DNA of 64,000 nt from Candidatus Zixiibacteriota bacterium. Its GTDB lineage: Bacteria > Zixibacteria > MSB-5A5 > WJJR01 > JAJRUJ01. Where the stretch lies: assembly GCA_020051695.1 (NCBI GenBank), contig JAGVQM010000019.1, positions 15,221 to 79,220 on the forward strand, in the 5' to 3' direction. A program made the position numbers and the translations under genes. Positions 4,030 to 61,736 of this stretch are shown here, in pieces (positions within the stretch are counted from its first letter, which is position 1; every line of letters starts with the position of its first letter). Below the pieces are notes generated by a model that was not told the origin of the DNA, searched no databases, and saw only the letters and a program-made list of their open reading frames with translations.

Positions 4030-4032
4030 CGT

Positions 4033-4902: not shown

Positions 4903-4920
4903 GTTCCACCCGAGTTCAGA

Positions 4921-5547: not shown

Positions 5548-5556
5548 ATCCGTACC

Positions 5557-33634: not shown

Positions 33635-34594
33635 CTAGTGTCGTTCCCGCCCAAAATTTTTACCTTTGGCGAAAACCAACGGCAGCAGCTGAGACGCCTC
33701 AATCAGGGTCATCCATAACCGCGCGGCCACGGCGATCATTGCCGCAAGTCCGGGCGACATTGTCGATGCCAGCAAAACGGACAGGACTCCTTCGCGCACC
33801 CCCAACCCTCCCGGCGCGAAGATCGCCAGGTAACCCAGCAAATAGGCGGCGCCGAAGCCGGCCGCTATTGCCCAGAACGAATCCGGTTGAAAGCCCAGAC
33901 CATGCAGCATACACCAAAACGACGCGCCGTAGAGCACCCACGAAATAACATAGAAGACCAGCAAAACCAGCGACCGGCCAAAGGACAATTGAATGACCAC
34001 CGGGGGCCGCTTGAAGAGGCGCAGACCGCAGTTGAGGATCCGGGCAAAGATGCCGGGATACAGAATGATCACAGCGAGCACGACCCCCAGGACCAATGGC
34101 AAAATCGATAACCCCTGAAAGATGGTGTGTCCCAGGACTGCCGTGACGAAAAGCGCCCCGGCGATCAGAGTAAATGCCTGATGCAATACTGTGCCGACAA
34201 ATGCCGTGGCCGTGGAATAGCCCTCCCGGTTGAGCATGTAAAACATCCCCATCATCGACCAGACCTTGCCCGGAAGGTATTTGCCGAGATTGGATAAAAC
34301 CGTAATGCGAAACGCCGTCCAGAATTTCAATCGCTGACCGGAGATGGAAAACAGCAAATACCGCCACAGTTGTACGAGACTGAGCGAAACCACCCATAAC
34401 AGCGCCGCCGAACAGGCCAGCCAGCTAAAATTGAACCTCCAGGGATAATCGCGGATGACATCCCATTGCGAGGCCATGGACCGCACGAGATAAAATAGAA
34501 CCGCCGCGAAAATCAGTATGAATATGACCGTGGTCAATACACCCTTCCGCGGTCGGGTCTGCTCGTGAATCCTAACATCGTTGTTATCAGGCAT
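33635..34594 (-). CDS. flippase-like / lysylphosphatidylglycerol-synthase-TM-region family membrane protein
   Basis: 319-aa, 8-TM protein with conserved basic residues in loops, like pfam LPG_synthase_TM/UPF0104. Tentative. Confidence 0.45.
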   Translation of the reverse strand: MPDNNDVRIHEQTRPRKGVLTTVIFILIFAAVLFYLVRSMASQWDVIRDYPWRFNFSWLACSAALLWVVSLSLVQLWRYLLFSISGQRLKFWTAFRITVLSNLGKYLPGKVWSMMGMFYMLNREGYSTATAFVGTVLHQAFTLIAGALFVTAVLGHTIFQGLSILPLVLGVVLAVIILYPGIFARILNCGLRLFKRPPVVIQLSFGRSLVLLVFYVISWVLYGASFWCMLHGLGFQPDSFWAIAAGFGAAYLLGYLAIFAPGGLGVREGVLSVLLASTMSPGLAAMIAVAARLWMTLIEASQLLPLVFAKGKNFGRERH

Positions 34595-34741: not shown

Positions 34742-34815
34742 TACCCCCGGCTGGATTCGAACCAGCTACCCTCGGCTTAGAAGGCCGATGCTCTATCCAT
34801 ATGAGCTACGGGGGC
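34742..34815 (-). tRNA. tRNA-Arg (anticodon TCT)
   Basis: Reverse complement folds as a cloverleaf: GCCCCCG/TA/GCTC...GAGC/A/TCGGC-CTTCTAA-GCCGA/GGGTA/GCTGG-TTCGAAT-CCAGC/CGGGGGT/A. CCA not encoded. Confidence 0.85.
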
Positions 34816-34919: not shown

Positions 34920-35684
34920 CTAGTTAATAAAGCCCAGCCAGTCGCCGAACAGGAAGCGCATGCGGCCGACCAACAGGGAAATACGCGCCATCACCGTGTA
35001 GCCGAAACCCGCGCCGAAAGTGACCATCAGCAGGTAAATGCCCACGCGCGAGGCGGCGCCGAATGCGCCCTTGTGTTCTTTGGAGAAAAAGAAATACACG
35101 ATCCCGCAAAAGACGCCAAGGAACACCACGACTGCTGACAGCGAATCCGTCGTCAGGAAACCGCCGTCCGGCCCGAACACGGCCAGCGGGTTGATCGTGT
35201 TATAAATCTGCCCGATAAAATCCGAACGCAGGTAGCGGACAAAATTCAATCCGGCAGTGGTCCCGACAATAAACGCCAGCGACCAGCGGGAAATCCAACC
35301 AAGCTTCGAAGACAACCGCAGCAATAAAATAATGCCCAAAATCAGCGGCAGGAGATACCAGTAATTCGGTTCGGCATCGGCCACCGAGGGTAAAAATGGC
35401 CGTACCGCCGGCGGATGCAGCCGCCCGATCAGGTTGGGGACCAGTGTCGTCCAAAACCCCATCGACATCCAGTACGCCGCCGAGACCCCAACAAACAAAT
35501 GCTCGGCAAATTTATAGAACGGGTTGTCTTTATACAAAAAGCTCAGGATACATAAAGTCAGGAACGCGCCGAACGTGATATAAAACCCTTCAAACGCCCG
35601 GGCATCGCGCGCCATGATCGAGATGACGAACGCAATGATCAGCACGATAAATCCGATCAGATAGATGATAGCCCTGCGTTGCAT
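34920..35684 (-). CDS. cassette protein D (copy 2)
   Basis: FLYKDNPFYKF and FFFSKEHKGAFGAASRVGIYLLMVTFGAGFGYTVMARISLLVGR motifs. Paralogue of 3388-4029. Confidence 0.7.
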   Translation of the reverse strand: MQRRAIIYLIGFIVLIIAFVISIMARDARAFEGFYITFGAFLTLCILSFLYKDNPFYKFAEHLFVGVSAAYWMSMGFWTTLVPNLIGRLHPPAVRPFLPSVADAEPNYWYLLPLILGIILLLRLSSKLGWISRWSLAFIVGTTAGLNFVRYLRSDFIGQIYNTINPLAVFGPDGGFLTTDSLSAVVVFLGVFCGIVYFFFSKEHKGAFGAASRVGIYLLMVTFGAGFGYTVMARISLLVGRMRFLFGDWLGFIN

Positions 35685-35687
35685 CGC

Positions 35688-36548
35688 CTATTTCGCCCGC
35701 GCTTTCCGTTTCCGGTCGATGAAAAAGGTCGCGTTGCCGATAATGATGAACAGCATGATCACGATATGCGCCACCGCCTGCGGCCCCATCATCTCCAGCC
35801 CGCCGTGCGGCATTTGCTCAAAATCGGGATATTTCCGGATCATTTCCGATTCGTATTCGGCTGCGCCCTTGATCCCCCCCATCATGCCCAGCATCTGGTT
35901 GGGATAATACGGATACAACTGCGGCGCCGAGACCGCGGTCACCCCGCCGGCCACCGGTATGTTGCCGGGGTCGCCGGCAAAAAGGATCCACTCTTTCAAA
36001 CCGGGAAAGCCGCCGCCGAAGGCCGCGATTAAGTCCATGTTTTTCAAACTGCGGACATCCCGCATCATCGGAATGCTGTCAATCTGCGTGCCGTTGACAT
36101 CGGTAGTATACATCTTCTTCATGTCGGTAATGATCACGTTGATCAGGCCCTGATTACCCGCCTTGTATCCCAGATGGACATAATCCACACCGCAAACCTT
36201 ATCCGGGAAATGTGTCGTGACGATACGGTCGATCGTCTCATCGGCCAGATTTTGCCCCGTGCCCCACAACGCCATGACATACAATTTCAGATTTCGCCGG
36301 CAACAGTGATACATCACGGCATCAACCATCGGTTGCTGTTCGGGAACAGTGGAGGGATCGAAATCCAGCGAAATCAACACCCGCGAACCCTCAGGCAGGG
36401 TCTCGATTTTATCGAAGATCTTCTGCACAATCGGCGTAATCCGCTCGGGAAAGATGACATTGAACAACAGGGGAATAATTACGGACAAGGCAATAAACAA
36501 AAAGATTATCCGCCGGTCGATGTTCTTGATGGTATCGAAAAAGGCCAT
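35688..36548 (-). CDS. cassette protein C (copy 2)
   Basis: 'IDRRIIFLFIALSVII' N-TM, 'SLDFDPSTVPEQQPM', 'GGIKGAAEYE', C-TM 'AVAHIVIMLFIIIGNATFF'. 3-nt gap to D2. Confidence 0.7.
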   Translation of the reverse strand: MAFFDTIKNIDRRIIFLFIALSVIIPLLFNVIFPERITPIVQKIFDKIETLPEGSRVLISLDFDPSTVPEQQPMVDAVMYHCCRRNLKLYVMALWGTGQNLADETIDRIVTTHFPDKVCGVDYVHLGYKAGNQGLINVIITDMKKMYTTDVNGTQIDSIPMMRDVRSLKNMDLIAAFGGGFPGLKEWILFAGDPGNIPVAGGVTAVSAPQLYPYYPNQMLGMMGGIKGAAEYESEMIRKYPDFEQMPHGGLEMMGPQAVAHIVIMLFIIIGNATFFIDRKRKARAK

Positions 36549-36552
36549 GGCG

Positions 36553-37341
36553 TTAATCCTTGTCCCGTCCGAGATATGTCCGTTCGATGCCCAGGATCAC
36601 CCGCAGCGACATCGAAATTACTCCCAGCGAAATGCCGATAATAATTGCCCGCTGGCCCGCCAGGTTGGGGACCCCCATAATCCAGTTGGTCAGGTTAGGC
36701 ACTTCGAAAAACGACAGCGCATCAGGCAGCCAGAACGTGGCATAGTACCCGGCGGGCGTCCGCCCCAGCAGAATGACAAAGGCAGTGACCAGCAGGACGG
36801 TGGCTTCCTTGTTTTTAGCCCGGAATGCGCGATACGACGCCGAGGCCACAAAAAAGGCCAGCAGCGCGTACATCGTCGCTTTCAGCGGAGTAAAGACATA
36901 CGTGAAAAAGTCCTGAAACACCGAGCCGGTGGCGGTGAGATTCCCCACCCAGCCGCCGGGGTTGCCGATTTTGAACAACCCGGCCCAGAGCATGACGAAA
37001 AATCCGATGAGTGTGACCATCGAGAAAAACCAGTCTTTGCCGCGCCGGTCCTCGATCCCGCCCATCGCATGGAAGGGAAACGCAATGAGCATCTTCAACG
37101 GCCAGAAGCCCCCCTGTTTCCTGCTTTCCGTGAAATAGAACTTCAACCCGCGGAAGAACCGCCCACTGTGGATCCGCACCAGGTTGCCGCCGCCGAGGAA
37201 GAAGGCAAACACGGCGATGATATCAAAATACAGGCTGAAATTTTCACCCAGCCGGCCGAACGGGTCATGCGGAATAAACGCCGCGATGATCAGCACCGCG
37301 CCGACGGTGAACGTGATTAATAATGGTACCTGCCGTTTCAT
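36553..37341 (-). CDS. cassette protein B (copy 2)
   Basis: Start reassigned to MKRQVPLL (ATG 37341) by alignment with B1 and B3. 'ATMYALLAFFVASASYRAFRAK' and 'VPNLAGQRAIIIGISLGVISMSLRVILGIERTYLG'. Confidence 0.7.
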   Translation of the reverse strand: MKRQVPLLITFTVGAVLIIAAFIPHDPFGRLGENFSLYFDIIAVFAFFLGGGNLVRIHSGRFFRGLKFYFTESRKQGGFWPLKMLIAFPFHAMGGIEDRRGKDWFFSMVTLIGFFVMLWAGLFKIGNPGGWVGNLTATGSVFQDFFTYVFTPLKATMYALLAFFVASASYRAFRAKNKEATVLLVTAFVILLGRTPAGYYATFWLPDALSFFEVPNLTNWIMGVPNLAGQRAIIIGISLGVISMSLRVILGIERTYLGRDKD

Positions 37342-37349
37342 GGTTTTGC

Positions 37350-38615
37350 CTATTGATTCAGCCGGAACAGATCGCGCACCCATTCGCCGGCGGTGGTGGC
37401 AATCCCGACATTAAACAATGACCCGATAGTCAGCAGTGTCACGCCGGCCAGGATCGCCAGCATCGCGATCATCTTGCCGACATCCTGCCCCTTCAACGAC
37501 CCCAGCTGGCGCGGTTCGTGCGACAGATAAGCCGAGGCGGCGAACAACTCCTCACCGATCAGCGTATAATCGCAGGCCGCGACAAAAAACGGCAGCTGTG
37601 CGGGCATCGCCGTGCCGGCGATCTGGATCGCCTCGATGGAATGGCCGGTCTCGGCCATAATCAGCGATTCGGCGAAAAACGCGCCGAGATAGAAACAGGT
37701 CGCCGGCCTTTCGCGCACCATGATCCCGTCCACCGCCGCGACATACCCGAACTGTTCGTCGGTGACATACTGCACATAATCATCCGAGTATGCATCGGGG
37801 CGCCCGGCGGCCAGATAGGCCTCTTTAATCGACTCGCGCGCGGTGGTCATCACAATCGAGCGTGAAGTCGGGACAAACAACTTGGAATCATATTCGGCGA
37901 TGGTCTTGGCGATCCGCCCCAAGATCGTAATCCCGGCCACGGTCTGCACGTCGTCCATGTCCTGGATGCCGGGGATAAACAAAATCGGCCGCCCCATTTC
38001 GGTGGCGCGTCCGATCGCCTCGTCGACCGCTTCGAGTCCGGCGATTTTGCGGATAAAGAGTATTTTGCCCCTTTTGGCCGAGGCGATGAAATACCCGATA
38101 AACAACGAGATGATTCCACCGACGACAAACAAATTCAGGATATTGAAATTAAACCACTGCGCGGACGATCGGACCGGACCGATCACCGGCGAAGACGACG
38201 AGCCCCCGGCTGTCTGGGTCTCGATTCTGTAATAGAAATCCGTCCCCGGCACGGTCGAGGCATCAGTGTATCTTTTTTCTCCGGCCGAGGAAAACCCGGT
38301 CTCGCGAAACGGCCCTTCCGGCGATTCGGCGCGCAAAATGCGGTAGCCCGTGACCAGGTTTTCGCCGGGACGGTCATCGGCCGACAGCTCCCAAAAGACA
38401 TTGATCGAATGCCCTTCATCGGAAGGCGTGTCTTCCGCCCCCGCATTGACCGGCGGCGCAGGCCGGCGGACCGCGGCCATCATCCCCGCAACGCCCGTAG
38501 CGGCGGAATCGGCCGGCGCCGAATCGACAACCTGGGCGACCATGCCGGAAGCCGGCAGCAGCATCCCTGCCAGAAGACAGCAAAAAAGAATTTTGTGCAG
38601 CACCTTCATGGTCAC
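37350..38615 (-). CDS. cassette protein A (copy 2)
   Basis: Signal peptide, Fn3-like 'NVFWELSADDRPGENLVTGYRILRA', TM, 'GRATEMGRPILFIPG...AESLIMAETG...QLPFFVAACDYTLIGEELFAASAYL'. Confidence 0.7.
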   Translation of the reverse strand: MTMKVLHKILFCCLLAGMLLPASGMVAQVVDSAPADSAATGVAGMMAAVRRPAPPVNAGAEDTPSDEGHSINVFWELSADDRPGENLVTGYRILRAESPEGPFRETGFSSAGEKRYTDASTVPGTDFYYRIETQTAGGSSSSPVIGPVRSSAQWFNFNILNLFVVGGIISLFIGYFIASAKRGKILFIRKIAGLEAVDEAIGRATEMGRPILFIPGIQDMDDVQTVAGITILGRIAKTIAEYDSKLFVPTSRSIVMTTARESIKEAYLAAGRPDAYSDDYVQYVTDEQFGYVAAVDGIMVRERPATCFYLGAFFAESLIMAETGHSIEAIQIAGTAMPAQLPFFVAACDYTLIGEELFAASAYLSHEPRQLGSLKGQDVGKMIAMLAILAGVTLLTIGSLFNVGIATTAGEWVRDLFRLNQ

Positions 38616-38639: not shown

Positions 38640-39383
38640 CTAGTTAATCAATTGCAACCAATCACTCATGAGATAATCCATGCGGCCGATCAACAGCGAT
38701 AACCGGCTCATGACCGTATACCCGAATGATGCGCCGAACGTGAGCATCAGTGTCCAGATCCCGATTTTGGCCACCCCGCCGAATGCGCCTTTATGTTCCT
38801 TGGAAAAATAAAAATAGATCAGTCCGGAGAGCGTCCCGATGACCAATATTGCCTGAGAAATGGTCGCCCACAAGTCGAGATTCCCGGCGGCATCGTAACG
38901 CTGCAGCGGGCCAGCAGAGGCCCCCAGCTGGAGGATGCCGTTGGAAACAAAGTAATTGATAAAATACAACCCCGCCGTCGCGCCGACCACCACCGCCAGC
39001 GGCCAGCGGGAGATCCACCCCGCTTTGGGAAACAACCGCATCAGCATCAGGACGCCCAGAAGCCCGCCGATCAGCATCATCCACCGGTCATCCCATCCGC
39101 CGCCCTGCACGAACGTCGTGTGATAGGCCGCGCCGACCCCGACGAAGAGCTTGGAATACATATTCTGCCAGAATAATGAGACAAACCAATAGCCGGCGGA
39201 AATTCCCACAAATGCGGCTTCGGAAAACTTGTAATACGGGTTGTCTTTATACAAGAAGGAAAAGATACCGATGGTAAAAAACGCACCCAGGGTCACCGCA
39301 AGGCCCTGGGATGCGGCCAGGATCGCAAAAACGGCGATTCCGACGGCGATAACGATATAGCCGACTACTTTGGTGTTCATCAT
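38640..39383 (-). CDS. cassette protein D (copy 3)
   Basis: FLYKDNPYYKF and YFSKEHKGAFGGVAKIGIWTLMLTFGASFGYTVMSRLSLLIGR. Start ATG overlaps the C3 stop (ATGA). Only 25 nt before the A2 start. Confidence 0.7.
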   Translation of the reverse strand: MMNTKVVGYIVIAVGIAVFAILAASQGLAVTLGAFFTIGIFSFLYKDNPYYKFSEAAFVGISAGYWFVSLFWQNMYSKLFVGVGAAYHTTFVQGGGWDDRWMMLIGGLLGVLMLMRLFPKAGWISRWPLAVVVGATAGLYFINYFVSNGILQLGASAGPLQRYDAAGNLDLWATISQAILVIGTLSGLIYFYFSKEHKGAFGGVAKIGIWTLMLTFGASFGYTVMSRLSLLIGRMDYLMSDWLQLIN

Positions 39384-40237
39384 GTTTGCTTCCGCCGGCC
39401 ACCGGCAAAGTAGGCCACATTACCCACGATGATGAAGAGGATCACGATGATGTGGGCAAATGACTGGGATAACATGAATTTCGTGGCCTTGCCCAGGGTA
39501 CCGGCCAACTCTTCAAATTCCGAAGCGCCCTTGAGGCCGCCCAGAATCCCCCGGAGCTGCCCGCTTTCAAAATAGGGATACGCCAGCGGGGCCTGTACTG
39601 CTGTCGTCCCCCCCAATAATTGTACCCCGAAACGATCAACGCCGAATTGCACCCACTCCACAATACCCGGATATCCGGCGGAGACATTGATCACAAAGTC
39701 GATATTGTTAAAATTCTGCATTCCCTGCATCAGCGGTAACTCGGCGATTGGCGTGCCCCGGAAATCGCGCGGGAATGCCGCGGGAATCGACGAACCCATC
39801 CGCTGGATCACCAATTCATTGCCGGCCTGGAAACCGAGGTTGACCCAGTCGCGGCCATAGGTCAGCGTCTTGCCCTTCCAGATAATCGTTTCTCCGGGCA
39901 CCTCGCCCAGTACGGACTCCAAGGCGGCATTGGCCTGCTGCGGTCCCTGCGGCCACAGTCCCATGATGATCATCTTCAAGTCATGATCGAGGCAATACCG
40001 GATCGCCGTTATCGCCATCGGCTGCAATTCCGGCGCCGAGGGAGGGTCATAATCACAGGGAATGAGCACGCGGGCGCCCGGCTGCAGTCGCGCCAGTTCG
40101 TCAAAACCACGACGCACTTCGTAAGAAATCGTGGTCTTTTGGGAGATATTCAAAAATAACGGCAGGGTGACCGCAACGATGACGAACAGGAAAATAATCC
40201 GCCGGTCGATCTTCATCAATTTGTCCCAAAAACCCAT
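39380..40237 (-). CDS. cassette protein C (copy 3)
   Basis: Start reassigned to MGFWDKLMKIDRRIIFLF (ATG 40237, AGGAA RBS) by alignment with C1 and C2. The ORF-track start at 40426 would overlap B3. Confidence 0.65.
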   Translation of the reverse strand: MGFWDKLMKIDRRIIFLFVIVAVTLPLFLNISQKTTISYEVRRGFDELARLQPGARVLIPCDYDPPSAPELQPMAITAIRYCLDHDLKMIIMGLWPQGPQQANAALESVLGEVPGETIIWKGKTLTYGRDWVNLGFQAGNELVIQRMGSSIPAAFPRDFRGTPIAELPLMQGMQNFNNIDFVINVSAGYPGIVEWVQFGVDRFGVQLLGGTTAVQAPLAYPYFESGQLRGILGGLKGASEFEELAGTLGKATKFMLSQSFAHIIVILFIIVGNVAYFAGGRRKQT

Positions 40238-40254: not shown

Positions 40255-40917
40255 TCAATCGCCGCTGACAAATGTCCGTTCGATCCCCAGAATAATCCGC
40301 AATGATGTCGACATGATCCCCAGCGCGATGCCGATCATGATCGCCCGCTGCCCGGCGGTGTTGGGGATGTTCATCACCCAATCGGCCCAGTTGGACAACC
40401 ACAGCCAGTGGGGCAACTGCAACCATTCTTTGGTGATCATATCACCGACCGGCACCCGCCCCAGCATCACAAAAAATGCAGCCAACAGCAGCATCGTCGC
40501 TTCCTTGTTGCGGGCGCGGAAGGCCCGATAGGAAGCCGAGGCCACGAAAAAACCGAGAAGGGCAAACATCGTGGAGGACAGCGGATCATAGACATTATCA
40601 TAAATGAACATGAACCGCGTACCGGGCTCCTGAAAATTCGCTCCTCTGGAGAAAAAGATGCCGACGATAAATATTGCGGCAAAACCGATAATCGTCACCA
40701 GTGAATACATCCAGTCTTTCTTGCGCCGGGCAACCTTGAGCAACGACAATTTCATCAAGTTCAGCGCACCCAGCCAGATGGCAAAGGCCTGAATGATCCC
40801 AAACCAGTCGGAAAACCAGTCGGAAAACCGGGAAACCGGTTCGTGCGGCACGAAATATTGGAAGATGTACATGATCCCCACCACCGCAGTGATGATCAAT
40901 GGAACTTCACGCTTCAT
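40255..40917 (-). CDS. cassette protein B (copy 3)
   Basis: 'STMFALLGFFVASASYRAFRARNKEAT' and 'IPNTAGQRAIMIGIALGIMSTSLRIILGIERTFV'. Confidence 0.7.
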   Translation of the reverse strand: MKREVPLIITAVVGIMYIFQYFVPHEPVSRFSDWFSDWFGIIQAFAIWLGALNLMKLSLLKVARRKKDWMYSLVTIIGFAAIFIVGIFFSRGANFQEPGTRFMFIYDNVYDPLSSTMFALLGFFVASASYRAFRARNKEATMLLLAAFFVMLGRVPVGDMITKEWLQLPHWLWLSNWADWVMNIPNTAGQRAIMIGIALGIMSTSLRIILGIERTFVSGD

Positions 40918-40950: not shown

Positions 40951-42225
40951 CTACACCTGGAACCACCCGGAAATATCCGCAATCTTAAATGTTCCCAGGA
41001 GCAAACCTGCGACAGCCGCGATCAAGATCAGTACTTTGGCCACGTCCTGACCCTTGACGCTGCCCAGTAATTTCGGTTCTTTCGACAGATAGGCCGAGGC
41101 GGCAAAAAGCTCTTCGCCAATTAATGTATAGTCGCAGGCCGCCACAAAAAACGGCAATTGAGAGGCATTCGCGGTGCCCGCGATCTGAATCGCACCGATC
41201 GCATTGCCGGTTTCGGCCATAATTAACGACTCGGCGTAAAACGCGCCCATATAGAAAATCGTCGCCGGTTTCTCGCGGACAAACAAGCCGTCCAGCGCAG
41301 CGGCATAACCGAACTGGTCATCGGTAAGATAACGCACGATGTCTTCGTTGAACGCATCCGGCCGGCCGACGTTCAAATAGGCCTCCTTCACCACCTCGCG
41401 GGAGGTGATCATCACCAGTGAACGCGAAACCGGAACATCCAATTGCGCATCGTACTCCGCGGCCAGTTTGGCGATCCGCCCCAGGATGGTCACCCCAGCC
41501 AGGGTCTGGACATTATCCATATCCTGTGTCCCGGGGATATACACCAGCTTGCGGCCCATTTCGGTGGCGCGCCCGACCGCCTGTTCGACTTCCGCCAGAC
41601 CGGCGATAGGCCGGACGTACAAATCCTTGCCCTTCTTGGCCACATTGATAAACCACAAAATCGAAATTCCGATTACCAGCACCCAGGGCAAAATCCGTGC
41701 GGTGCGAATGATATGAAACCACTGGCCGGAGGCTTTCGCGGCCCCGGAGAGCGGCGAAGCCACGCCGGCAAACAGTTTTTCCCCGGCCGGAGTGAACTTG
41801 CCGGCCAGGGCGGCCACCTTATAGTAATAATTTACCCCGTTGTCGACCTGGCCGTCGGTGAGCGTGGTCATTCCGGCGGTCGCGGAACCAACGGTATCAA
41901 ACGGCCCGTCGGGCGAAGTCGAACGCAAGATAATATACTTGGTGACATTTCTGCGGCCGGCAACATCATCGGCGGACAGTTCCCAACTGATAGTAATCGA
42001 TTTCCCGGCGTCATCAGGGGTATCCTGGGCTTCGACCGAGACAACCGGCGCCGGGGCTTCGAGTTGGGGCGGAGTTTCAGCCACAACGACCGTGGTCGAG
42101 TCGACGGGAGCATCCTGTGCCCAGGCAGGCGATGCCGCGCCACATACAGGAAAGACCAGCAGGAACAGGGAGATGGACAACGCTTTTTTCATCATCAGCA
42201 GTTCCTGCACAAAAAAAATCCCCAC
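40951..42225 (-). CDS. cassette protein A (copy 3)
   Basis: Signal peptide (MMKKALSISLFLLVFPVCGAASPAWA; true start may be M11 or M12), Fn3-like 'ITISWELSADDVAGRRNVTKYIILRS', TM, 'GRATEMGRKLVYIPG...AESLIMAETG...QLPFFVAACDYTLIGEELFAASAYL'. Confidence 0.7.
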   Translation of the reverse strand: MGIFFVQELLMMKKALSISLFLLVFPVCGAASPAWAQDAPVDSTTVVVAETPPQLEAPAPVVSVEAQDTPDDAGKSITISWELSADDVAGRRNVTKYIILRSTSPDGPFDTVGSATAGMTTLTDGQVDNGVNYYYKVAALAGKFTPAGEKLFAGVASPLSGAAKASGQWFHIIRTARILPWVLVIGISILWFINVAKKGKDLYVRPIAGLAEVEQAVGRATEMGRKLVYIPGTQDMDNVQTLAGVTILGRIAKLAAEYDAQLDVPVSRSLVMITSREVVKEAYLNVGRPDAFNEDIVRYLTDDQFGYAAALDGLFVREKPATIFYMGAFYAESLIMAETGNAIGAIQIAGTANASQLPFFVAACDYTLIGEELFAASAYLSKEPKLLGSVKGQDVAKVLILIAAVAGLLLGTFKIADISGWFQV

Positions 42226-42353
42226 CTGCTTTGAGGTGAGGTCCTATTCATCGACGAGACTGGGTTCCCGGACAATGACTTGTTCTGCGTTTCCCGTCTC
42301 TCATAACCGTCACTATTATCCCATCCCCATCCCGCACACTCACAAGTGATAGA

Positions 42354-42382
42354 ATATACCCCCCGCATATACCGCCTGTCAA
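42354..42382 (-). promoter_or_regulatory. putative sigma70 promoter for the 8-gene cassette array (TTGACA-17-GTATAT/TATATT)
   Basis: On the minus strand, cTTGACAggcggtatatgcgggggGTATATTct, ~120 nt upstream of the A3 start, in the divergent intergenic region. Confidence 0.4.
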
Positions 42383-42515
42383 GGCAATTATTCCCCGGAG
42401 AACCAATCAACGGCGGCTCTGCTGGCCGCTGATCAGTGCGGTGCATTTATCGAAAAACCTGTTGACATCCGGCCCCGTGCCCGCTTGCTCTAGGGGAAAG
42501 GATAGAGCGCAACTG

Positions 42516-43184
42516 ATGGCCGCGACACAAAAAATCGACGTCTACGAACAAGCCCTGGAGCTGGTCCGGCAACTTCATGCGGTGAACAAATATGAGGTGG
42601 ATGAGGAGGTGGCCGAGTGGCTGGCCAGCGAATCGGAAATCAACGCTGATTCCCCCAGCGGGCAATTCAACAGGATCATCGGCAGAATTTACGAGGGCAT
42701 GTTCAACGGCATTCAATCCATGCGGGAAATCGGGCCGGAATTGCTGTGGGGCCGCGCGCAGGACAAAGTCCGGGGCGAATCATATCATGCGCCGGACACT
42801 GCACAAAAGGAAAAAATACCGATCATCCACTGGCGGCTGCTGCGATTGTACTGGATGGTCCGGCTGGCCGCCGAGGAGTTGATCGAGCAAAAACCCCGCA
42901 CCCGGCTGGGCAAAGTCTTAATCGAAGTCGAGCACGACCTGCGCGAGGCGTTTGTCGAAACAAAAGAAGGCGTCAAGCTCCCGCTGGCCATGCGCCGCAA
43001 GAAACAGTGGGACCTGCTGGCCGATTTCGGCATGGGGCTGACGGTCGACCAGATTTACGATCTGCGCCCGCCGCGCTATGTCATCCACTGGAACACCGGC
43101 GAAAAGTTGTGGCTGGGAATAATCGTCGGAATCGTGATCGGTTTCGTGCTGGGGGTAATGCTGCTGTGGCCGTCGGGGCAGTAG
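42516..43184 (+). CDS. hypothetical tail-anchored protein, divergently transcribed from the cassette array
   Basis: Start at ATG 42516 (MAATQKID). Soluble helical ~190-aa domain followed by a single C-terminal TM (LWLGIIVGIVIGFVLGVMLLW). Confidence 0.45.
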   Translation: MAATQKIDVYEQALELVRQLHAVNKYEVDEEVAEWLASESEINADSPSGQFNRIIGRIYEGMFNGIQSMREIGPELLWGRAQDKVRGESYHAPDTAQKEKIPIIHWRLLRLYWMVRLAAEELIEQKPRTRLGKVLIEVEHDLREAFVETKEGVKLPLAMRRKKQWDLLADFGMGLTVDQIYDLRPPRYVIHWNTGEKLWLGIIVGIVIGFVLGVMLLWPSGQ

Positions 43185-43198
43185 CGCTTGCGCTGCTC

Positions 43199-46138
43199 CT
43201 ATAATTCTCCGTTGGCGTCGGTTTTAATGATGCTGAAATCAGCAGATGTGGCACCATGAGCGGTCATCCACCCGCTGATGATCAGACCACCATCGGGAGC
43301 TTCAATGACACCGGTGGCCCCATCACTTTCGGAATCACCGATGGTCCGTTCCCACAGGATCGTCGCAGTCGGACTTATTTTTGCCACGTACATATCGCTT
43401 TTGCCTGCGCCAAACGATTTAGTAGAACCAACAACAACAAAATTGCCATCCGAAACCGCAATGATCTTTGAAATCGCATCATCATTGCCGCCACCCAGAT
43501 AGAGTTCGTTGCGTTTATTGCCCAACGAATCAATCCATATTACATAACCATCTTTCATTCCGAAATACGATGCCTGGGTCCATCCGGCAATTACGTAATC
43601 ATCGATTCCATATTGAATCAGCGATTCGCCACTGTCATTGTAATAGTAGGCCCCCTGACCGTAATCTCTGCCCCACAAGTTTTTACCCTGCGCATCAGTC
43701 TTGGTAACAAACAAACCGACGCCAGCTATCATCAACCCGGTATCATGACACTGAATCACCGCATTGCCGCCATAGCCCGAATATTGCCTTTTCCAGGTTT
43801 CCTGTCCGATGGCATCAGTTTTGAACAAGAATGCTGCGGGGTTGCCTCCGACGGAGCCAGACAGAACATACCCACCGTCTGATGTTGCTGCGACAGATCG
43901 GCTGCCAGCCACCACCGTGGCACCGTCAACATAATGAAGGCGTTCCCAACCAATTGAACCGAAATCATCGATTCTGGCGATTACAACTCTGGTATCCCAT
44001 ACTAATCCCCCGCGTTCCCCCGATTCTCCGGCCGCGATATATCCACCATCCCATGCCGGGATTATTGAAAAGAGGTAATCGTCATAATCCGGTCCATGGC
44101 CAAAAACCCGTTCCCATGCCACTGTACCATCGGCGTTGACTTTAGTCGCGTAAAAATCAGAAGTCGACTGCGGTGAATAACTTGGACTCCAATAGGCAAC
44201 GCCATTTGGAATTGTGCCGACCGCCACCGCGCCACCCTCAGGGGTTAAAGTAATTGAGCGTGCTGCTTTCCTGCCAGTGCCTCCGATAATAGTATACCAA
44301 GTATTGGATAACGTTGTTGTTTTCGCCTCTGCCACATTGGAAAGTCCAGACCAATTTCCCGAAGTATCCGCCGTCTTCAGCGCTAAAAAATAATTCAATC
44401 CTGGAGTTAATCCGATTATCTCAAATGATTCCGCTTCGTGTACAGGTTTCGCAGGCCGTAATCCTTCTGCCGGAATCCCCTCACTCCATGTATCATCTGT
44501 AATCGGTGACGTTGCATAGCGCATGTCGTATTGAGCTGCCTGCCCCAAAAGACTATCGTCACCCGACGCGTTCCAAATCAAGGTCACCGAATTATGGCTG
44601 ACGGTTTGCGGGTACAGGTTCGTTATTGCTGCCGGAGGGATTGTGTCTGTTCCAGGTCGGGCGATTCCCAGCACATCATTCGAGAGAGGGGACCAATTCT
44701 GGACCTCATCCGCAGTTTTTATGGCAAAATGATAGGCGGTGTTTTTCGTCAAACCCGTTACCATGAGTGTTTCCGGGGAACCACTTGATAGAGGCAACGT
44801 AACACCGGGATAGGAATATAGTGCTCTGAAATTAGTTTCATTAATTACTGAAGTCGAGTATCGAAGATCGTATAAACTAGCCGTTCCCACATCGCCATCA
44901 TCTCCCGGCGCCGTCCAACTCAAGGTCAGCGATGTCAATGATGAATCGATAATCCGCAAATCAATGATTGCCCCCGGCGGCGTCCGGTCGATGCTCGCTG
45001 TCCGCGCCGCCAGTACGTTGGACATCGTCGACCAGTTCAGCATTTCGTCGCCGGTTTTCAGGGCAATATAATATTCAGTTTCACTCTGCAAACCGGAAAT
45101 CCTGATTGTGTCACCAGTTCCGGCGAACGATGGTTTCGGCAGATTTGGCGCGATTTGTGCATCGGGAAAATTCACTTCGTTCATCAGCCGGGGAGAATAA
45201 CGAATATCATAAAACGACGCTCGTCCCAGCGTGTCGTCATCACCCGGCGCCGTCCAGATCAACAAAAGAGAAGTGCTCGTCGTATCCAGAACTCTCAGAT
45301 CAGCAATCGGTCCCGGAGGCGTGGTATCGGCCGCCGTGGCGCCGATGATGACATTAGACATTGCCGACCAGTTCGGGACTTCATCGGCGGTTTTAATTGC
45401 AAAACAATAATTTTCGTTCGTGTCCAGGTCATAGAAAGTATACTGCTGCGTGCTGTCCGCCAGCCAGGGTGTCGGTGGATCGGCAACCTGTTTCGCATGA
45501 ATAAAATATTCGTCGGTAATCAGCGTGGTCGGTGAATAACGGATATCATATGCTGCGGCAGTCCCCGCCGAGCCGTCATCGCCGGGCACGGTCCAGCTTA
45601 ATTCAATGAAGGTATATCCGGCGTCAGTCACCCGCAAATCGGCAATTGCTGCCGGGGGGACAGTATCCAGGACAGCTTCTGTCGTGCCGGTGGCGATATT
45701 GGAGATCGCCGACCAGTTGGGCACTTCATCAGCCGCCTTGATCCCAAAATAATATGTTGTGTCCGGCAACAGCCCGAGGACCAGCATCGTCTCCGGCGTC
45801 CCCGCTTCCTGCGGGATCGGCAGACTGAACGGCTGCAGCGCCGAATCCCAGGTGGAATCGGTCAGGACGATGGAATGAAATCGGATATCATATTGGGCCG
45901 CCGTGCCGTTGGCGTCATCATCCCCGGGCGCGGTCCAGGTCAGCACCAGCGAACTGTCAGTGGGATTGATCGCCGCAAGATCGGTAATTTGTGCCGGGGG
46001 TGTGCTGTCGGGAATACCGGTGCCCTTGTCGGTTTTTTCCACGCCGCAGGACAAGACAAGCACGACGATCAAACCGGCGCCAATCAACGACTTTCGCAGT
46101 CGCATCCCCACCTCCCGCCGAGCGCAAGTGTCCGGCAT
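43199..46138 (-). CDS. large cell-surface lipoprotein: five tandem Fn3-like repeats + C-terminal β-propeller-like repeat domain
   Basis: Signal peptide with lipobox-like 'LVLSCG' (alternative start MRLRKSL at 46105). Five ~100-aa repeats each containing 'PPxxIxDL...LxWTAPGDDxxxGxAxxYDIRYS...YYFAIKTADEVxNWS'. C-terminal ~350 aa of ~45-aa repeats (DGGYIAAG / DGGYVLSG / DGNFVVVGS...W.R). Confidence 0.65.
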   Translation of the reverse strand: MPDTCARREVGMRLRKSLIGAGLIVVLVLSCGVEKTDKGTGIPDSTPPAQITDLAAINPTDSSLVLTWTAPGDDDANGTAAQYDIRFHSIVLTDSTWDSALQPFSLPIPQEAGTPETMLVLGLLPDTTYYFGIKAADEVPNWSAISNIATGTTEAVLDTVPPAAIADLRVTDAGYTFIELSWTVPGDDGSAGTAAAYDIRYSPTTLITDEYFIHAKQVADPPTPWLADSTQQYTFYDLDTNENYCFAIKTADEVPNWSAMSNVIIGATAADTTPPGPIADLRVLDTTSTSLLLIWTAPGDDDTLGRASFYDIRYSPRLMNEVNFPDAQIAPNLPKPSFAGTGDTIRISGLQSETEYYIALKTGDEMLNWSTMSNVLAARTASIDRTPPGAIIDLRIIDSSLTSLTLSWTAPGDDGDVGTASLYDLRYSTSVINETNFRALYSYPGVTLPLSSGSPETLMVTGLTKNTAYHFAIKTADEVQNWSPLSNDVLGIARPGTDTIPPAAITNLYPQTVSHNSVTLIWNASGDDSLLGQAAQYDMRYATSPITDDTWSEGIPAEGLRPAKPVHEAESFEIIGLTPGLNYFLALKTADTSGNWSGLSNVAEAKTTTLSNTWYTIIGGTGRKAARSITLTPEGGAVAVGTIPNGVAYWSPSYSPQSTSDFYATKVNADGTVAWERVFGHGPDYDDYLFSIIPAWDGGYIAAGESGERGGLVWDTRVVIARIDDFGSIGWERLHYVDGATVVAGSRSVAATSDGGYVLSGSVGGNPAAFLFKTDAIGQETWKRQYSGYGGNAVIQCHDTGLMIAGVGLFVTKTDAQGKNLWGRDYGQGAYYYNDSGESLIQYGIDDYVIAGWTQASYFGMKDGYVIWIDSLGNKRNELYLGGGNDDAISKIIAVSDGNFVVVGSTKSFGAGKSDMYVAKISPTATILWERTIGDSESDGATGVIEAPDGGLIISGWMTAHGATSADFSIIKTDANGEL

Positions 46139-46202: not shown

Positions 46203-47642
46203 TTACTCGATTTCCAGCCGCCAGGGCAGCACATACCAAATACGTTCGTCATTCAACGCCGATATTTCAGCAGCCACATCGTCCGCCCGATAACCGAACA
46301 GCCAACCCGGCAACCGGATCGGCGGGGCGGCAAACCACGGGGCACGGGGCAGGAGTCTGACTTCGTAGTTATTGCGGTCGATCCCCGCCAGTTGCGCCGC
46401 CGAGGCGATGGCCCGCTGCAGCCCACCGTATTCATCGATTAAGCCGAGGTCCTTGGCCGCTTTGCCGGTCCAGACCCGGCCCTGCGCCGCGTGCTCAGTC
46501 TCTTCGTGCTCCAGCCGGCGGCCCTTCGCCACCACCTCGATGAAATTATCATATAACAGATGGACCTGTTGGCGCAGTATCTCTCGTTCCTGCTCGGAAA
46601 ACGGCCTGCTCATGCTGTACATGTCGGCGTGCGCACCACGGGTGGAGGTTTCTTTGTCGATGCCGATTTTTTCGTACAACCCGGCCAGGTTGATTTTGCC
46701 GTAATACACGCCGATTGAACCGGTGATTGTCGCGGGCGAGGCAAAGACCGAATCAGCAGCGCAGCCGATATAGTAGCCGCCCGAGGCCGCGACATCGGCC
46801 ATCGAAACGACCAGCGGCTTTTTGTCCCGGGCCAACTCCAGTTCGCGTTTGATCAGGTCGGCGGAGATGCCCGACCCGCCGGGCGAATTGATGCGCAGGA
46901 CAATGGCCTTGACATCCCGGTCGTTGCGCGCCTCACGAAGGGCTGCAACCATGGTTTGTGCCCCCAGCACCTCGCCGGCCAACAGGTCATCACGGTCCGT
47001 ACCCGGCAGCATCGTGCCCTCGGCAACGATCACGGCGACTTTGGGGATCGGTCCCCAGGCCGTGCGGTGGTATGACCGGTCGGCCAGCGCAGCAAAATCG
47101 ACGCGCGCGGCCCCCCGGGAAATTTTATCCTCGATGATTTGGCCCAGCTCATCTTCGTAGGCAATCTGGTCGACCAGCCCGGCGCGCTCTGCGTCCACAC
47201 TCACCAGCGGACCGCCGTCGATCAATTCCCGCACACGGTCCGGGGACAAGTCGCGGTCGGCGGCAACGGTCGTGACCAATTCCATAAAGATGTCGTCCAG
47301 CAGCGCTTCCCGGGCTTCACGGGCCGGTTCGGACAACGAGGTGCGGGAATATGTCTCGACCGCGCTTTTATATTCGCCCACCCGTTCGTATTCGAACTCG
47401 ATGCCGAGCTTGTCCATCAAATCCGTATAGAACGTTGCCTCTGCGCGCAGACCATCGAGATTGACCGTCGACACCGGTGGGCAAACCAGCCAATCGGCCG
47501 CACACGCCAGGTAATACTCGCCGTCGGACGGCGACGAGGAAAAATACACGACGACCGGTTTGCCCTGGGACTGAATCTGCCGAATTGCCGTGCGCAGTTC
47601 ATCCAGCCGCGCCCAGCCAACGTGCAGGTCATCCAAACGCAA
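46203..47642 (-). CDS. sppA: signal peptide peptidase SppA (S49 family, two-domain type)
   Basis: Two S49 repeats. Second carries 'SPGGSGISADLI' and 'VVSMADVAASGGYYIGCAAD'. No obvious N-terminal TM in the ORF as called (TTG start). Confidence 0.75.
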   Translation of the reverse strand: MRLDDLHVGWARLDELRTAIRQIQSQGKPVVVYFSSSPSDGEYYLACAADWLVCPPVSTVNLDGLRAEATFYTDLMDKLGIEFEYERVGEYKSAVETYSRTSLSEPAREAREALLDDIFMELVTTVAADRDLSPDRVRELIDGGPLVSVDAERAGLVDQIAYEDELGQIIEDKISRGAARVDFAALADRSYHRTAWGPIPKVAVIVAEGTMLPGTDRDDLLAGEVLGAQTMVAALREARNDRDVKAIVLRINSPGGSGISADLIKRELELARDKKPLVVSMADVAASGGYYIGCAADSVFASPATITGSIGVYYGKINLAGLYEKIGIDKETSTRGAHADMYSMSRPFSEQEREILRQQVHLLYDNFIEVVAKGRRLEHEETEHAAQGRVWTGKAAKDLGLIDEYGGLQRAIASAAQLAGIDRNNYEVRLLPRAPWFAAPPIRLPGWLFGYRADDVAAEISALNDERIWYVLPWRLEIE

Positions 47643-50834: not shown

Positions 50835-53543
50835 ATGTTATGTTATACTGCAATGGTCAACATGTGCCAACGAATTAAATATCTCGGGCAGGCGGCTGTC
50901 GGCCGCCGGTTGCTGCTGATTATAGTTGTCTTGACCTGGCCGCCCGGAGTATCGGTCGCCGGCTGGCCCGGCGACAGCAGCATGGTTTTTGAAGCGCCGG
51001 GCATTTATGAGCGGCTGTATCGCAGCCATATCCAGTCGACAGACGGGGCGCCGACCCTGTCTTTGACCTTATCCGGAGGAGGCGCGAGAGGCCTGGCGCA
51101 AATCGGCGTGCTGCGTGCCATCGAAGAACGAGGGCTGGTCGTCACCGGCATTGCCGGGACGAGTCTCGGCGCCATCATCGGCGGGTTGTATGCAGCCGGT
51201 TATTCCGCGGAGGAGTTGGATTCACTCGTCCGCGTGGCCGATTGGAATTCTTTTTTTTCCGATACACCGCCGCGCACGCATTTGTTGCTGCCTCAGAAAG
51301 ATGCCCGCTCTCGCGCCTTTCTGACGCTCCATTTTCGCGGGCTTAAACCCAATTTGCCGACGGCCATGACCGGCGGCCAGCCGCTGCTGCAACTACTGAC
51401 GGAATTATGCCATGCGGCCGAATATCATGCGCGATCGGACTTCGATTCGCTGGCCATCCCCTTTCGCAGTGTCGCGACCGACCTGGTTTCCGGCCGGGCC
51501 ATAATCCTGCGGCACGGTGACCTGGCGCTGAGTTTGCGGGCCGCCTCGGCGTTCCCACTGGCCCTCTCTCCGGTGCATCTGGATTCGATGATGCTGGTCG
51601 ACGGTGGTTTGATCAGCCCCATTCCGGTATCATCCGCCCGCGAGTTCCCGGCCGACCTGGCGCTTGCGGTCAATACAACCTCAGAATTGGAATCGGCGGT
51701 CGCGCTGGAAAACATTTACAACGTGGCCAATCAATCGACCACCATCATGACCCGGCCGCAGTCCCAACAGGCGCTAACGCTGGCCGACGTGGTCATCGCG
51801 CCGCTGTTGCACGAGTACAACAACCTTGATTTTGACCGGGCCGATACGATCATTGCGCTGGGATACAGTGCAGCTTGCCGGGTTTTGGATTCACTACTGG
51901 CGTACTATCAACCACCGGCACAGGACTCGGCCGCCGGTGAACGCGATATCACCGTCGATTCTGTCGCCGTCTCCGGCTTGGATGAGACGGTCCTCGAACA
52001 CCGCGAAATTATTGCCTATCTGCGGTCGCCGTCCGGCGACAAATTATCGCTTGAACGTCTGGAACATAAACTGCATCAGGTAATCGACAACGGCCAGGTG
52101 CGCCGCATAACACTGCAGGTTTCCGCCGATCCCCGGCCGACCATTGGCGAGATAACCATCTCCCCCTATCCCCGGCTGCGCGAGGTGGTCTTCGACGGCA
52201 ACAGCGTGTTTCCCAATGCGGTGTTGGCCGCCGGCTTTTCCCCGCTGATCGGGCGTCTGGCCGACACACGACGGCTGGCCGAGGCACTTCGCAGTTGCCT
52301 GGAATTATATGAGGCGGAGGCCTACTCTCTGGTCGAAATCCGGGCTGCCGAACTCGACGATTCCACCGGGCGCCTGAGAGTGGTCATCGATGAAGGCCGG
52401 CTTTCCGGGCTGGAGGTTGCCGGCAATACCTCGGTTAAAGACTGGGTGATTACCCGCCATTTCCCGCTGCAGAAAGGCCGGTTGTTTAATTTTCGGGAAT
52501 TTTTTCACGGATTGGAAGATTTGCACGCCACCGGGTTATTCAACAATGTTGGGGGCCGGATCGCCCGGGGGGCCGACGGGCCCATCGTCAAACTCAACGT
52601 TCGCGAAAAAGACTACGATATTGTGCGCTTCGGATTACGGCACGATTTGGAATACCAGACCGACGTGTTCGCCGAGGTTGTCAACAGCAACCTTCTGGGG
52701 CTGGGGAATGAAATTTACATACACGCGGGGTATTGCCCGCGCCGGGAACGATACGCCGCCGGTGTGCACGCCGACCGGATGTTCCGCACCTACCTTAACG
52801 CCGCTGTCCAGGCCTATCGGGAGATCCATGAACGGTACCGCTACGTGGACTACCATCGCCGCGGCTTTTTCGAGACGGCCCGGACAGGGTTGATGCTGAC
52901 GGTGGGACATAACATCAAACGTTTTGCGGCATTCTCGGCCAATGTGCGGCTGGAGGATATTGTCCTCACCGAAGAGCCGCCGCTGCCGAATTCGCGCGCG
53001 CGTTTGCGGGCGATGGTATTCTCGGCGCAGTATGACGACCTTGACCGGTATCCTTTTTCCCGCCATGGCCGGAAGTTTGATTTGTCGGTGGAATTTGCCG
53101 ATGATTTTGTCGGCGGCAATGTGGTGTATCGGAAGGCTTGCGCCCAGTTGGAAAACTGGTTGTCGCCCATCGGCCGGTTCACGATCGGCCAGCGGATAAC
53201 TCTGGGGGTGGCCGACCGCGTTGTGCCGGATTACGAGCGTTTTGCGTTGGGGGGCCGCCAGTCGATGATGGGGTTGCACGACGATGAATTCCTCGGCGAT
53301 AAGCTCATCCTCGGCAACCTCGATTGCCGGGTGCGGTTCTTTTCCCGCAGTTATATGAATTTCCGTCTTGATGTAGGTGGGGTCTGGGAGGACGGGGACG
53401 ATGTCCGGCTGATTGACGATTTGCGAGTTGGCACCGGGGCCGGACCTTCATTTGATACTCCTTTGGGACCCTTGGAGTTGATGTGGGGGATTGCCGAGGA
53501 CGATCTCACGAATTTCTATTTTAACTGGGGTTATGACTTCTAA
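50835..53543 (+). CDS. patatin-like phospholipase fused to POTRA + Omp85-type β-barrel (PlpD-like, type Vd secretion)
   Basis: Patatin motifs GGGARG (oxyanion hole), GTSLGA (GxSxG nucleophile), DGG (catalytic Asp). C-terminal half is a D15/ShlB-like β-barrel ending '...NWGYDF'. Confidence 0.75.
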   Translation: MLCYTAMVNMCQRIKYLGQAAVGRRLLLIIVVLTWPPGVSVAGWPGDSSMVFEAPGIYERLYRSHIQSTDGAPTLSLTLSGGGARGLAQIGVLRAIEERGLVVTGIAGTSLGAIIGGLYAAGYSAEELDSLVRVADWNSFFSDTPPRTHLLLPQKDARSRAFLTLHFRGLKPNLPTAMTGGQPLLQLLTELCHAAEYHARSDFDSLAIPFRSVATDLVSGRAIILRHGDLALSLRAASAFPLALSPVHLDSMMLVDGGLISPIPVSSAREFPADLALAVNTTSELESAVALENIYNVANQSTTIMTRPQSQQALTLADVVIAPLLHEYNNLDFDRADTIIALGYSAACRVLDSLLAYYQPPAQDSAAGERDITVDSVAVSGLDETVLEHREIIAYLRSPSGDKLSLERLEHKLHQVIDNGQVRRITLQVSADPRPTIGEITISPYPRLREVVFDGNSVFPNAVLAAGFSPLIGRLADTRRLAEALRSCLELYEAEAYSLVEIRAAELDDSTGRLRVVIDEGRLSGLEVAGNTSVKDWVITRHFPLQKGRLFNFREFFHGLEDLHATGLFNNVGGRIARGADGPIVKLNVREKDYDIVRFGLRHDLEYQTDVFAEVVNSNLLGLGNEIYIHAGYCPRRERYAAGVHADRMFRTYLNAAVQAYREIHERYRYVDYHRRGFFETARTGLMLTVGHNIKRFAAFSANVRLEDIVLTEEPPLPNSRARLRAMVFSAQYDDLDRYPFSRHGRKFDLSVEFADDFVGGNVVYRKACAQLENWLSPIGRFTIGQRITLGVADRVVPDYERFALGGRQSMMGLHDDEFLGDKLILGNLDCRVRFFSRSYMNFRLDVGGVWEDGDDVRLIDDLRVGTGAGPSFDTPLGPLELMWGIAEDDLTNFYFNWGYDF

Positions 53544-61662: not shown

Positions 61663-61736
61663 GGCGGTGTAGCTCAGCTGGCTAGAGCAGCGGAATCATA
61701 ATCCGCGTGTCCGGGGTTCGAATCCCTGCACCGCTA
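61663..61736 (+). tRNA. tRNA-Met (anticodon CAT; elongator-type, could be tRNA-Ile2 if lysidinylated)
   Basis: GGCGGTG/TA/GCTC-AGCTGGCTA-GAGC/A/GCGGA-ATCATAA-TCCGC/GTGTC/CGGGG-TTCGAAT-CCCTG/CACCGCT/A. Lacks initiator features. CCA not encoded. Confidence 0.85.

Follow-up and report, generated by a model that had tools for sequence, protein, structure and literature searches.

Analysis of a 64,000-nucleotide stretch of a Candidatus Zixiibacteriota genome (contig JAGVQM010000019.1, positions 15,221 to 79,220; hereafter the window, whose numbering is used throughout) points to a multisubunit inner-membrane assembly that includes the protein encoded at 40951-42225 on the minus strand, here called protein A copy 1 (A1). 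Protein A is a hairpin-anchored membrane protein with a fibronectin type III (Fn3) domain outside and a Rossmann-like domain inside the cell, and is a member of the catalogued Pfam family DUF6754 (PF20539); NCBI already labels its relatives "DUF6754 domain-containing protein" or "fibronectin type III domain-containing protein". Its gene stands at the head of a fixed four-gene unit, A-B-C-D, and judging from sequence and gene order we put at roughly 85% the probability that A belongs, as one subunit, to an A-B-C-D membrane complex. More tentatively, at somewhat less than even odds, we propose that this complex acts in transport or assembly of the cell envelope and is coupled to ATP through two further gene products, E and F, that are encoded near A-B-C-D in other genomes. 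No function has been assigned to DUF6754, no solved structure represents it and the searchable literature does not mention it.

The case for A as a subunit is made by the company its gene keeps. The window contains three sets of the four genes, as follows.

40951-42225, minus strand: protein A copy 1, 424 amino acids (aa) with a GTG start, as given in the list of open reading frames (ORFs)
40255-40917, minus strand: protein B copy 1, six transmembrane (TM) segments, with SASYRAFRA(K/R) in a conserved cytoplasmic loop and LGIER at the C terminus
39380-40237, minus strand: protein C copy 1, a TM segment, a domain of ~230 aa predicted to be periplasmic and a second TM segment
38640-39383, minus strand: protein D copy 1, five to six TM segments, with FSFLYKDNPFYKF and YFFFSKEHKG as conserved segments; start codon overlapping the stop codon of C (ATGA)
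34920-38615, minus strand: second A-B-C-D set (A 37350-38615, B 36553-37383, C 35688-36548, D 34920-35684)
3388-6906, minus strand: third A-B-C-D set (A 5557-6906, B 4921-5547, C 4033-4902, D 3388-4029)

Within these sets the genes are separated by gaps of 0-33 nt or joined by the ATGA overlap. The first two form a tandem array of eight genes that ends at a tRNA gene, and the third lies 29 kb away. Screening of genome loci with hidden Markov models (HMMs) of A, B, C and D, each built from the three window paralogs, recovered the order of the three window sets, on the same strand, in essentially all of 79 genome loci from more than 10 phyla, with matches at E 1e-60 to 1e-130 for each subunit. 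A tandem A-B-C-D-A-B-C-D arrangement recurs in 27 loci, mostly in metagenome-assembled genomes (MAGs) labelled Zixibacteria or Ignavibacteria. Both termini of B are predicted to lie inside the cell, and the domain of C is predicted to be periplasmic because both termini of that protein are strongly positively charged. Searches of Pfam, NCBIfam and PDB sequences returned no relatives of B, C or D, and together with the fixed gene order this gives a strong guilt-by-association argument for A as an assembly subunit. The original prediction had left a choice between sensor, anchor and assembly subunit for A, and it is the last of these that best fits a fixed operon at essentially all of 79 loci.

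The four proteins have no detectable homology to one another in any pairwise profile alignment (hhalign). A common origin of the A domain and C, both of which place an alpha/beta domain between two TM segments, was considered and rejected at hhalign probabilities of 0.3-6%. Fusions of A with B were absent among 150 family representatives, and our searches found no described system with the A-B-C-D gene set.

The architecture of A itself was resolved by hydropathy, conservation and an AlphaFold2 (AF2) model of A1 built from a 72-sequence alignment, with a predicted local distance difference test score (pLDDT) of 79.7; a second AF2 model of A was also made. The features of A1 are the following.

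42118-42195, minus strand: Sec-type signal peptide, residues 11-36, MMKKALSISLFLLVFPVCGAASPAWA and then QD (hydropathy, AF2 helix at residues 6-29, AxA motif read from the sequence)
41731-42054, minus strand: divergent Fn3 ectodomain, residues ~58-165, with an acidic D-x-P-x-D-x-G ... W-x-x-S-x-D-D motif
41635-41712, minus strand: TM helix 1, residues 172-197, predicted to run from outside to inside, poorly conserved (hydropathy, AF2, conservation)
41077-41634, minus strand: predicted cytoplasmic alpha/beta (Rossmann-like) core of DUF6754, residues 198-383
41083-41247, minus strand: almost invariant stretch, residues 327-381, GAFYAESLIMAETG...IQIAGTA...QLPFFVAACDYTLIGEELFAASAYLS (at least 96% identity in 28 sequences)
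40978-41043, minus strand: TM helix 2, residues ~395-416, predicted to run from inside to outside and followed by a short external tail (hydropathy, AF2)

The model comprises a beta-sandwich (residues 62-165), a helix (172-197), an alpha/beta domain of six beta-alpha units (210-381) and a second long helix (384-412), and the hydropathy profile shows the signal-peptide helix and two TM segments, in keeping with the earlier description of a single TM helix after the ectodomain and a hydrophobic segment at the C terminus. Three independent indicators support a cytoplasmic location of the DUF6754 domain with both termini of A predicted to be periplasmic. First, the protein begins with a signal peptide that ends in AWA and is followed directly by QD. 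Second, positive charge is concentrated between the TM segments: across 27 sequences from many phyla counts of lysine plus arginine close to the TM ends average 1.4 on the N-terminal side, 7.0 in the domain between the TM segments and 1.1 in the C-terminal tail, and in A1 the lysine- and arginine-rich KKGKDLYVR follows TM helix 1 directly. Third, relatives exist (P0132, P0145 and P0204) in which a beta-rich domain placed after TM helix 2 replaces or supplements the N-terminal one, which argues that both termini of A are outside the cell. The original prediction of an Fn3 domain outside and a conserved domain inside is thus supported by all three.

The inside domain is the constrained part of the protein. 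All three window paralogs of A match DUF6754 with scores of 383-401 bits (cut-off 27), from model position 2 or 3 to position 250-256 of 257 (for A1, E 2.4e-117 and 391 bits), and they have the layout of the family, in which a soluble alpha/beta core lies between two TM helices and C-terminal to a variable region (hydropathy, AF2). The family is large: clustering at 90% identity gives more than 8000 clusters, and clustering at 50% leaves 2067 representative ones. At least 596 A loci came up when one genome per species was scanned, and the best 80 of these are spread over Zixibacteria, WOR-3, Fermentibacteria/Aegiribacteria, Eisenbacteria, Coatesbacteria, Stahlbacteria, Neomarinimicrobiota, Gemmatimonadota, Planctomycetota (Phycisphaerae, and one MAG labelled Singulisphaera), Acidobacteriota, Armatimonadota, Rifleibacteria and MAGs labelled Deltaproteobacteria; over the core of ~200 aa they share 66-80% identity with the window protein. 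In 28 sequences from more than 10 phyla, 85 residues of A are at least 96% invariant, and the AETG and ACDYT motifs, whose conservation had been singled out for mapping, both fall within the nearly fixed stretch 327-381. Both TM helices, unlike the inside domain, are poorly conserved. This level of conservation, as read from the alignments, is typical of core machinery or of enzymes.

What the domain does is not revealed by its motifs. The original prediction saw no recognizable catalytic signature in it, in agreement with our finding that the sole HMM match is to a domain of unknown function and that fold searches return only generic Rossmann-like structures. A match to a known domain, which had been thought capable of explaining the motifs, was indeed obtained, and DUF6754 names them without accounting for them. 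Sequence searches of the whole PDB with A, both single-sequence and profile-based, retrieved Fn3 domains only, and the NCBIfam search of A gave only noise. Conserved histidines, a Walker A motif and a flavinylation motif are all lacking in A (25-27 sequences were scanned for each of A-D), and Cys364 is its sole invariant cysteine. In the AF2 model, combined with the conservation data, the invariant residues D235, S269, T301/D302/Q304 and E332, and further E338-T-G, G350-T351 and C364-D365-Y-T, are located at or just past the C-terminal ends of predicted strands, and may together form a pocket or crevice. The C-terminal strand ends are the usual position of the ligand-binding or active site in Rossmann-like folds.

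These features raise the alternative that A is a membrane-tethered enzyme, with DUF6754 acting at the inner leaflet on a membrane-embedded or phosphorylated substrate such as a lipid or a sugar-phosphate intermediate, and with B, C and D delivering the substrate or flipping the product. Conservation at a level seen in enzymes, the placement of invariant Asp, Glu, Cys, Thr and Ser at the strand ends and the two flanking TM helices, which keep the domain at the membrane surface, are all consistent with this reading, as is the frequency of lipid and envelope genes in the neighborhood (CdsA, LpxB and AccA in related loci, and an LPG_synthase_TM protein downstream in the window). A local 14-bit resemblance to IF-2B/MtnA-type sugar-phosphate enzymes was also observed at residues 338-368 (E 0.016 in the NCBIfam search). 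However, this signal is below threshold and was found in only two of 30 family members (E 0.067), the neighboring lipid genes are housekeeping genes whose linkage to A is inconsistent, and no enzyme family is significantly similar to A in sequence or fold. We therefore consider an enzyme unlikely, while giving it real weight. A more specific identity with the NagB/RpiA/CoA-transferase-like and IF-2B/MtnA group, suggested by the correspondence of AETG to SENG and of PFFVAA to PFYVAAP, was rejected in that neither a significant HMM match nor a specific fold match was obtained.

Rossmann-like modules of the USP type are known from transporters, for example TeaD of the TeaABC TRAP transporter (3hgm) and the USP domain of KdpD (7ji4), and their likeness to A is confined to fold class. 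In comparison with these modules A has neither sequence similarity nor the USP ATP-binding motif, and DUF6754 is larger (six strands), much more strongly conserved and flanked on both sides by a TM helix.

The ectodomain presents the opposite picture. In A1 it superposes as a seven-strand beta-sandwich on solved Fn3 domains, upholding the Fn3-like assignment made earlier from sequence patterns, even though it is too divergent from Fn3 domains such as those of the Clostridium thermocellum Fn3-like protein (3mpc) and titin for detection by the Pfam fn3 HMM, which gives no match to A1 at E <= 1 and E 0.069 for copy 2. It also differs from these domains in its conserved acidic motif DxPxDxG...SxDD and in being, across the family, an optional N-terminal module. 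Among the 150 family representatives, the region N-terminal to DUF6754 varies from 0 to 742 aa (median 228) and is made up of arrays of Fn3 domains, a BamB-like PQQ_2 propeller, unrecognized sequence or nothing at all. On sequence comparison the Fn3 domain of A is thus an optional accessory module and not the part under constraint.

This variability bears on the proposal that A acts as a sensor or as a transducer of signals across the membrane, the Fn3 domain sensing outside and the inside domain relaying the signal, a part of the original prediction that did not hold up. The ectodomain is not conserved, is dispensable, occurs in unrelated types at either terminus, and is joined to an inside domain conserved at the level of core machinery or enzymes; the cross-phylum identity of 66-80% is, in our judgement, much above that expected of a sensor. 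Pfam and NCBIfam identify DUF6754 only, with no kinase, cyclase, MCP or DNA-binding output domain, and no regulator gene is consistently adjacent. We regard a role in sensing as quite improbable.

A possible source of energy for the proposed A-B-C-D complex was identified outside the window, where clustering of the ORFs flanking A-B-C-D loci revealed two linked genes. Protein E (~620 aa) is a cytoplasmic actin-fold ATPase of the GlmL/MutL family (Pfam MutL, PF13941, E 1e-125) in which the ASKHA motifs DCGSTTTK, DIGGATTD and GSGGV, read from the sequence, are intact. Protein F (~375 aa) is highly conserved and has a barrel-sandwich-hybrid N-terminus and a KOW-like C-terminus. E and/or F were found in 35 of the 79 loci seeded with A-B-C-D, and in 20 of the 46 of those with at least 3.3 kb of upstream sequence; reciprocally, among 27 F-seeded loci with at least 5 kb on both sides, A-B-C-D is present in 13 and E in 17. 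The E-F pair often abuts A-B-C-D (for example L048 2402-5400, L073 2492-5509 and L010 1982-5024), is sometimes located 3' of D (L066), and is fused into a single gene in L040 (2-2623) and L080 (3-2060); in the Phycisphaerae loci L075 and L078, D is followed by a second E-like paralog. Linkage of E-F to A-B-C-D was found in Planctomycetota, Fermentibacteria, Acidobacteriota, Rifleibacteria and Zixibacteria. Sequence searches of the PDB with E and F found no relatives, and the literature searches returned nothing on PF13941, on GlmL in Planctomycetes, on GlmL as an actin-like protein or on Fn3 proteins of Zixibacteria.

To our knowledge, the ATPase class of E is known only in the form of reactivases of B12 enzymes. 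E resembles GlmL/MutL, DdrA and EutA-type reactivases in its complete ASKHA phosphate-binding motifs. Unlike the GlmL models it is ~160 aa longer and is not found beside any B12 enzyme, and at 222 bits it falls below the NCBIfam cut-off of 475 for GlmL and Or-4. A B12-enzyme reactivase system composed of GlmL/MutL and a mutase was rejected: a partner with the DxHxxG motif is missing, there being no conserved histidine in A and no invariant histidine in F that could supply it, and no mutase genes were seen adjacent to E or elsewhere in the loci. Reactivases of the GlmL/DdrA class remodel a Rossmann-like partner domain at the expense of ATP, as described for DdrAB and GlmL, and this offers a possible model for an action of E on A or F.

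From these elements the following mechanism can be envisaged. The four proteins would assemble into a single inner-membrane complex with sizeable portions on either side of the membrane. The TM helices of A would be mere tethers, and its DUF6754 domain would probably sit as a cap over the cytoplasmic loops that are conserved in B and D. A putative acidic crevice in this domain may bind a small ligand or a partner, or may be catalytic, and the Fn3 domain, next to the periplasmic domain of C, would serve as a periplasmic spacer or adaptor that varies between lineages. E and F would dock on or remodel the cytoplasmic domain of A, with E acting on A or F, and ATP use by E would be coupled to a step of transport or assembly across the inner membrane, probably for a component of the envelope. 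On this proposal, which we hold at a little under even odds, A-B-C-D with E and F would be an ancient and undescribed envelope machine of the FCB and PVC groups, Acidobacteriota, Armatimonadota and others, unrelated to characterized transporter, secretion or respiratory systems, with DUF6754 as its catalytic or coupling core and E as a new kind of motor.

Several observations weigh against the proposal. E and F are absent from the 64-kb window (tblastn) and from about half of the loci, and may not be obligatory partners of A-B-C-D. Neither an ATPase or cofactor motif nor a known transporter fold was detected in A-D by searches of Pfam, NCBIfam and the PDB and by motif scans; in particular, Walker A (GxxxxGK[ST]) is absent from every A, B, C and D sequence examined, and no ABC match was obtained in Pfam. 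The physical association of the four proteins is deduced from the association of their genes, and B, C, D and F may yet prove remotely related to a known transporter class. Finally, the stretch 327-381 is the least confident part of the AF2 model (pLDDT 52-63, and below 50 in the second model), and because it is poorly modelled the pocket of A is inferred rather than established.

A relation to a known class was examined for the ion-translocating complexes Rnf and Nqr, of which A-B-C-D with F could be a very divergent relative, F corresponding to NqrA or to the N-terminus of RnfC, B and D to NqrD/E or RnfA/E, and C to NqrC/RnfG. The composition and sizes of the subunits resemble those of Nqr and Rnf, A-B-C-D having two six-TM subunits of ~210 aa and a subunit with a periplasmic domain, and the barrel-sandwich N-terminus of F matches RnfC_N in five of nine members (best E 2.6e-5) and NQRA_N in two of nine. 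The barrel-sandwich hybrid is, however, a widespread module, DUF6754 has no counterpart in Rnf or Nqr, and the membrane subunits have no detectable homology to theirs: B and D have no Rnf-Nqr match in Pfam, and hhalign probabilities of the A-D profiles against Escherichia coli RsxA, RsxE, RsxD and RsxG were below 2% (<=0.4% for RsxA/RsxE). Also, no alignment column of B or D contains cysteine in 70% or more of the sequences, the flavinylation motif [ST]GA[TS] occurs in none of the A-D sequences, and no Fe-S motif was found in A-D. We judge such a relation to be highly improbable. The remaining possibility, that A is a passive anchor tying a surface or periplasmic structure to the inner membrane, is suggested by its Fn3 ectodomain and by the large Fn3-repeat protein encoded next to it in the window (or the PKD-repeat protein upstream in L001, a complete Zixibacteria genome), and is very doubtful in that an almost invariant 200-aa cytoplasmic domain would be superfluous for an anchor, many family members have no ectodomain, the large neighbors are not conserved across loci, and the Fn3 domain of A shows no specific relation to the repeats of its neighbor (BLASTP E >= 0.3).

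A is set apart by a combination of properties, namely 66-80% identity across more than 10 phyla, a fixed operon of four genes whose B, C and D products have no relatives in Pfam or in sequence searches of the PDB, two- to three-fold duplication of that operon in Zixibacteria and frequent association with an actin-fold ATPase gene. Together these suggest a core function of the cell envelope in large, mostly uncultured bacterial groups that is absent from model organisms. Its elucidation would provide a function for thousands of genes now called "hypothetical", and possibly a new way to power a membrane complex.

With respect to the A1 gene, the ORF and the described features are real and recur in two paralogs in the window, at 37350-38615 (55% identity) and 5557-6906 (41%), both alignable with A1 over the full length. 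The sequence motifs quoted in the original prediction are present throughout the three copies with the exception of YYY, which is missing from the third, and that copy also has an insertion of ~25 aa in the ectodomain, unlike the earlier description. A1 is 100% identical to the database entries P0001 and P0002, and the nearest homologues with a named source are annotated Candidatus Zixiibacteriota. The NCBI-held product P0002 is 414 aa long, as if translated from the ATG at 42195. This ATG is preceded by AGGA and yields the 414-aa product, and is therefore probably the true start in preference to the listed GTG, which sits within a hairpin followed by a run of T. The hairpin is GC-rich and its T-run comprises eight residues (42210-42241, minus strand); it overlaps the listed GTG and lies between the ATG and the following promoter-like site.

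42353-42382, minus strand: sigma-70-like promoter match upstream of A1, TTGACA-18-TATATT, 11 of 12 positions (consensus scan only)

The hairpin and T-run could be a leader attenuator or a chance match. Rfam returned no family match to the hairpin, and no riboswitch was found upstream of A1.

An additional A gene was observed in the complete Zixibacteria genome L001 (17295-17921), where a third copy follows a tandem A-B-C-D-A-B-C-D array and ends right past GRATEMGRP. It keeps the Fn3 domain, the TM helix and the start of the inside domain, and may be a truncated pseudogene or the product of a sequencing frameshift; this apparent "short DUF6754" gene is just a truncated third A copy. In WOR-3 loci such as L047, a DUF4388 gene is located immediately 3' of D.

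F also occurs without E or A-B-C-D in a subgroup of metagenome loci (L093-L102, L106, L122, L135, L151 and L156), where its neighbors encode LpxB, AccA, a DUF4388 (PATAN-like) protein, Era and a ~294-aa protein that resembles an outer-membrane beta-barrel and has no Pfam match. Directly upstream of E in 22 F-seeded loci is a small conserved ORF of ~110-146 aa with a hydrophobic middle and no Pfam match (for example L090 7634-8071 and L048 1909-2442), and farther upstream GcvP2, GcvH (glycine cleavage) or CdsA is often encoded.

Just upstream of the A1 operon, the large neighbor mentioned above (43199-46138, minus strand) is a 979-aa protein with a lipobox-like VLSC N-terminus, at least five Fn3 repeats with an "APGDD...YDxRY" signature and a repetitive C-terminal half of propeller-like appearance; the equivalent position in L001 is occupied by a 1215-aa PKD-repeat protein. 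Between the promoter region of the operon and this gene, a 247-aa ORF on the plus strand (42441-43184), divergent from A1, encodes a C-terminal TM helix and has no Pfam match; the source contig calls a 222-aa gene here. The tRNA gene at the end of the eight-gene array (34742-34815, minus strand) is directly downstream of the second D gene and is followed by the LPG_synthase_TM (MprF-like) gene at 33635-34594; another tRNA gene is found at 61663-61736 on the plus strand. The third A-B-C-D set adjoins a gene (2546-3244, plus strand) for a 232-aa protein with an ERCC4 nuclease domain and a tandem helix-hairpin-helix (XPF/Hef-like). Elsewhere the window encodes an SppA-like S49 peptidase (46203-47642, minus strand), a glycosyltransferase (28896-30131, minus strand) that contains QTMAN_N, the domain found at the N terminus of tRNA-queuosine mannosyltransferase, and a 902-aa protein (50835-53543, plus strand) in which a patatin-like phospholipase is fused to POTRA and Omp85 domains and whose architecture resembles that of autotransporters of the PlpD type (type Vd).

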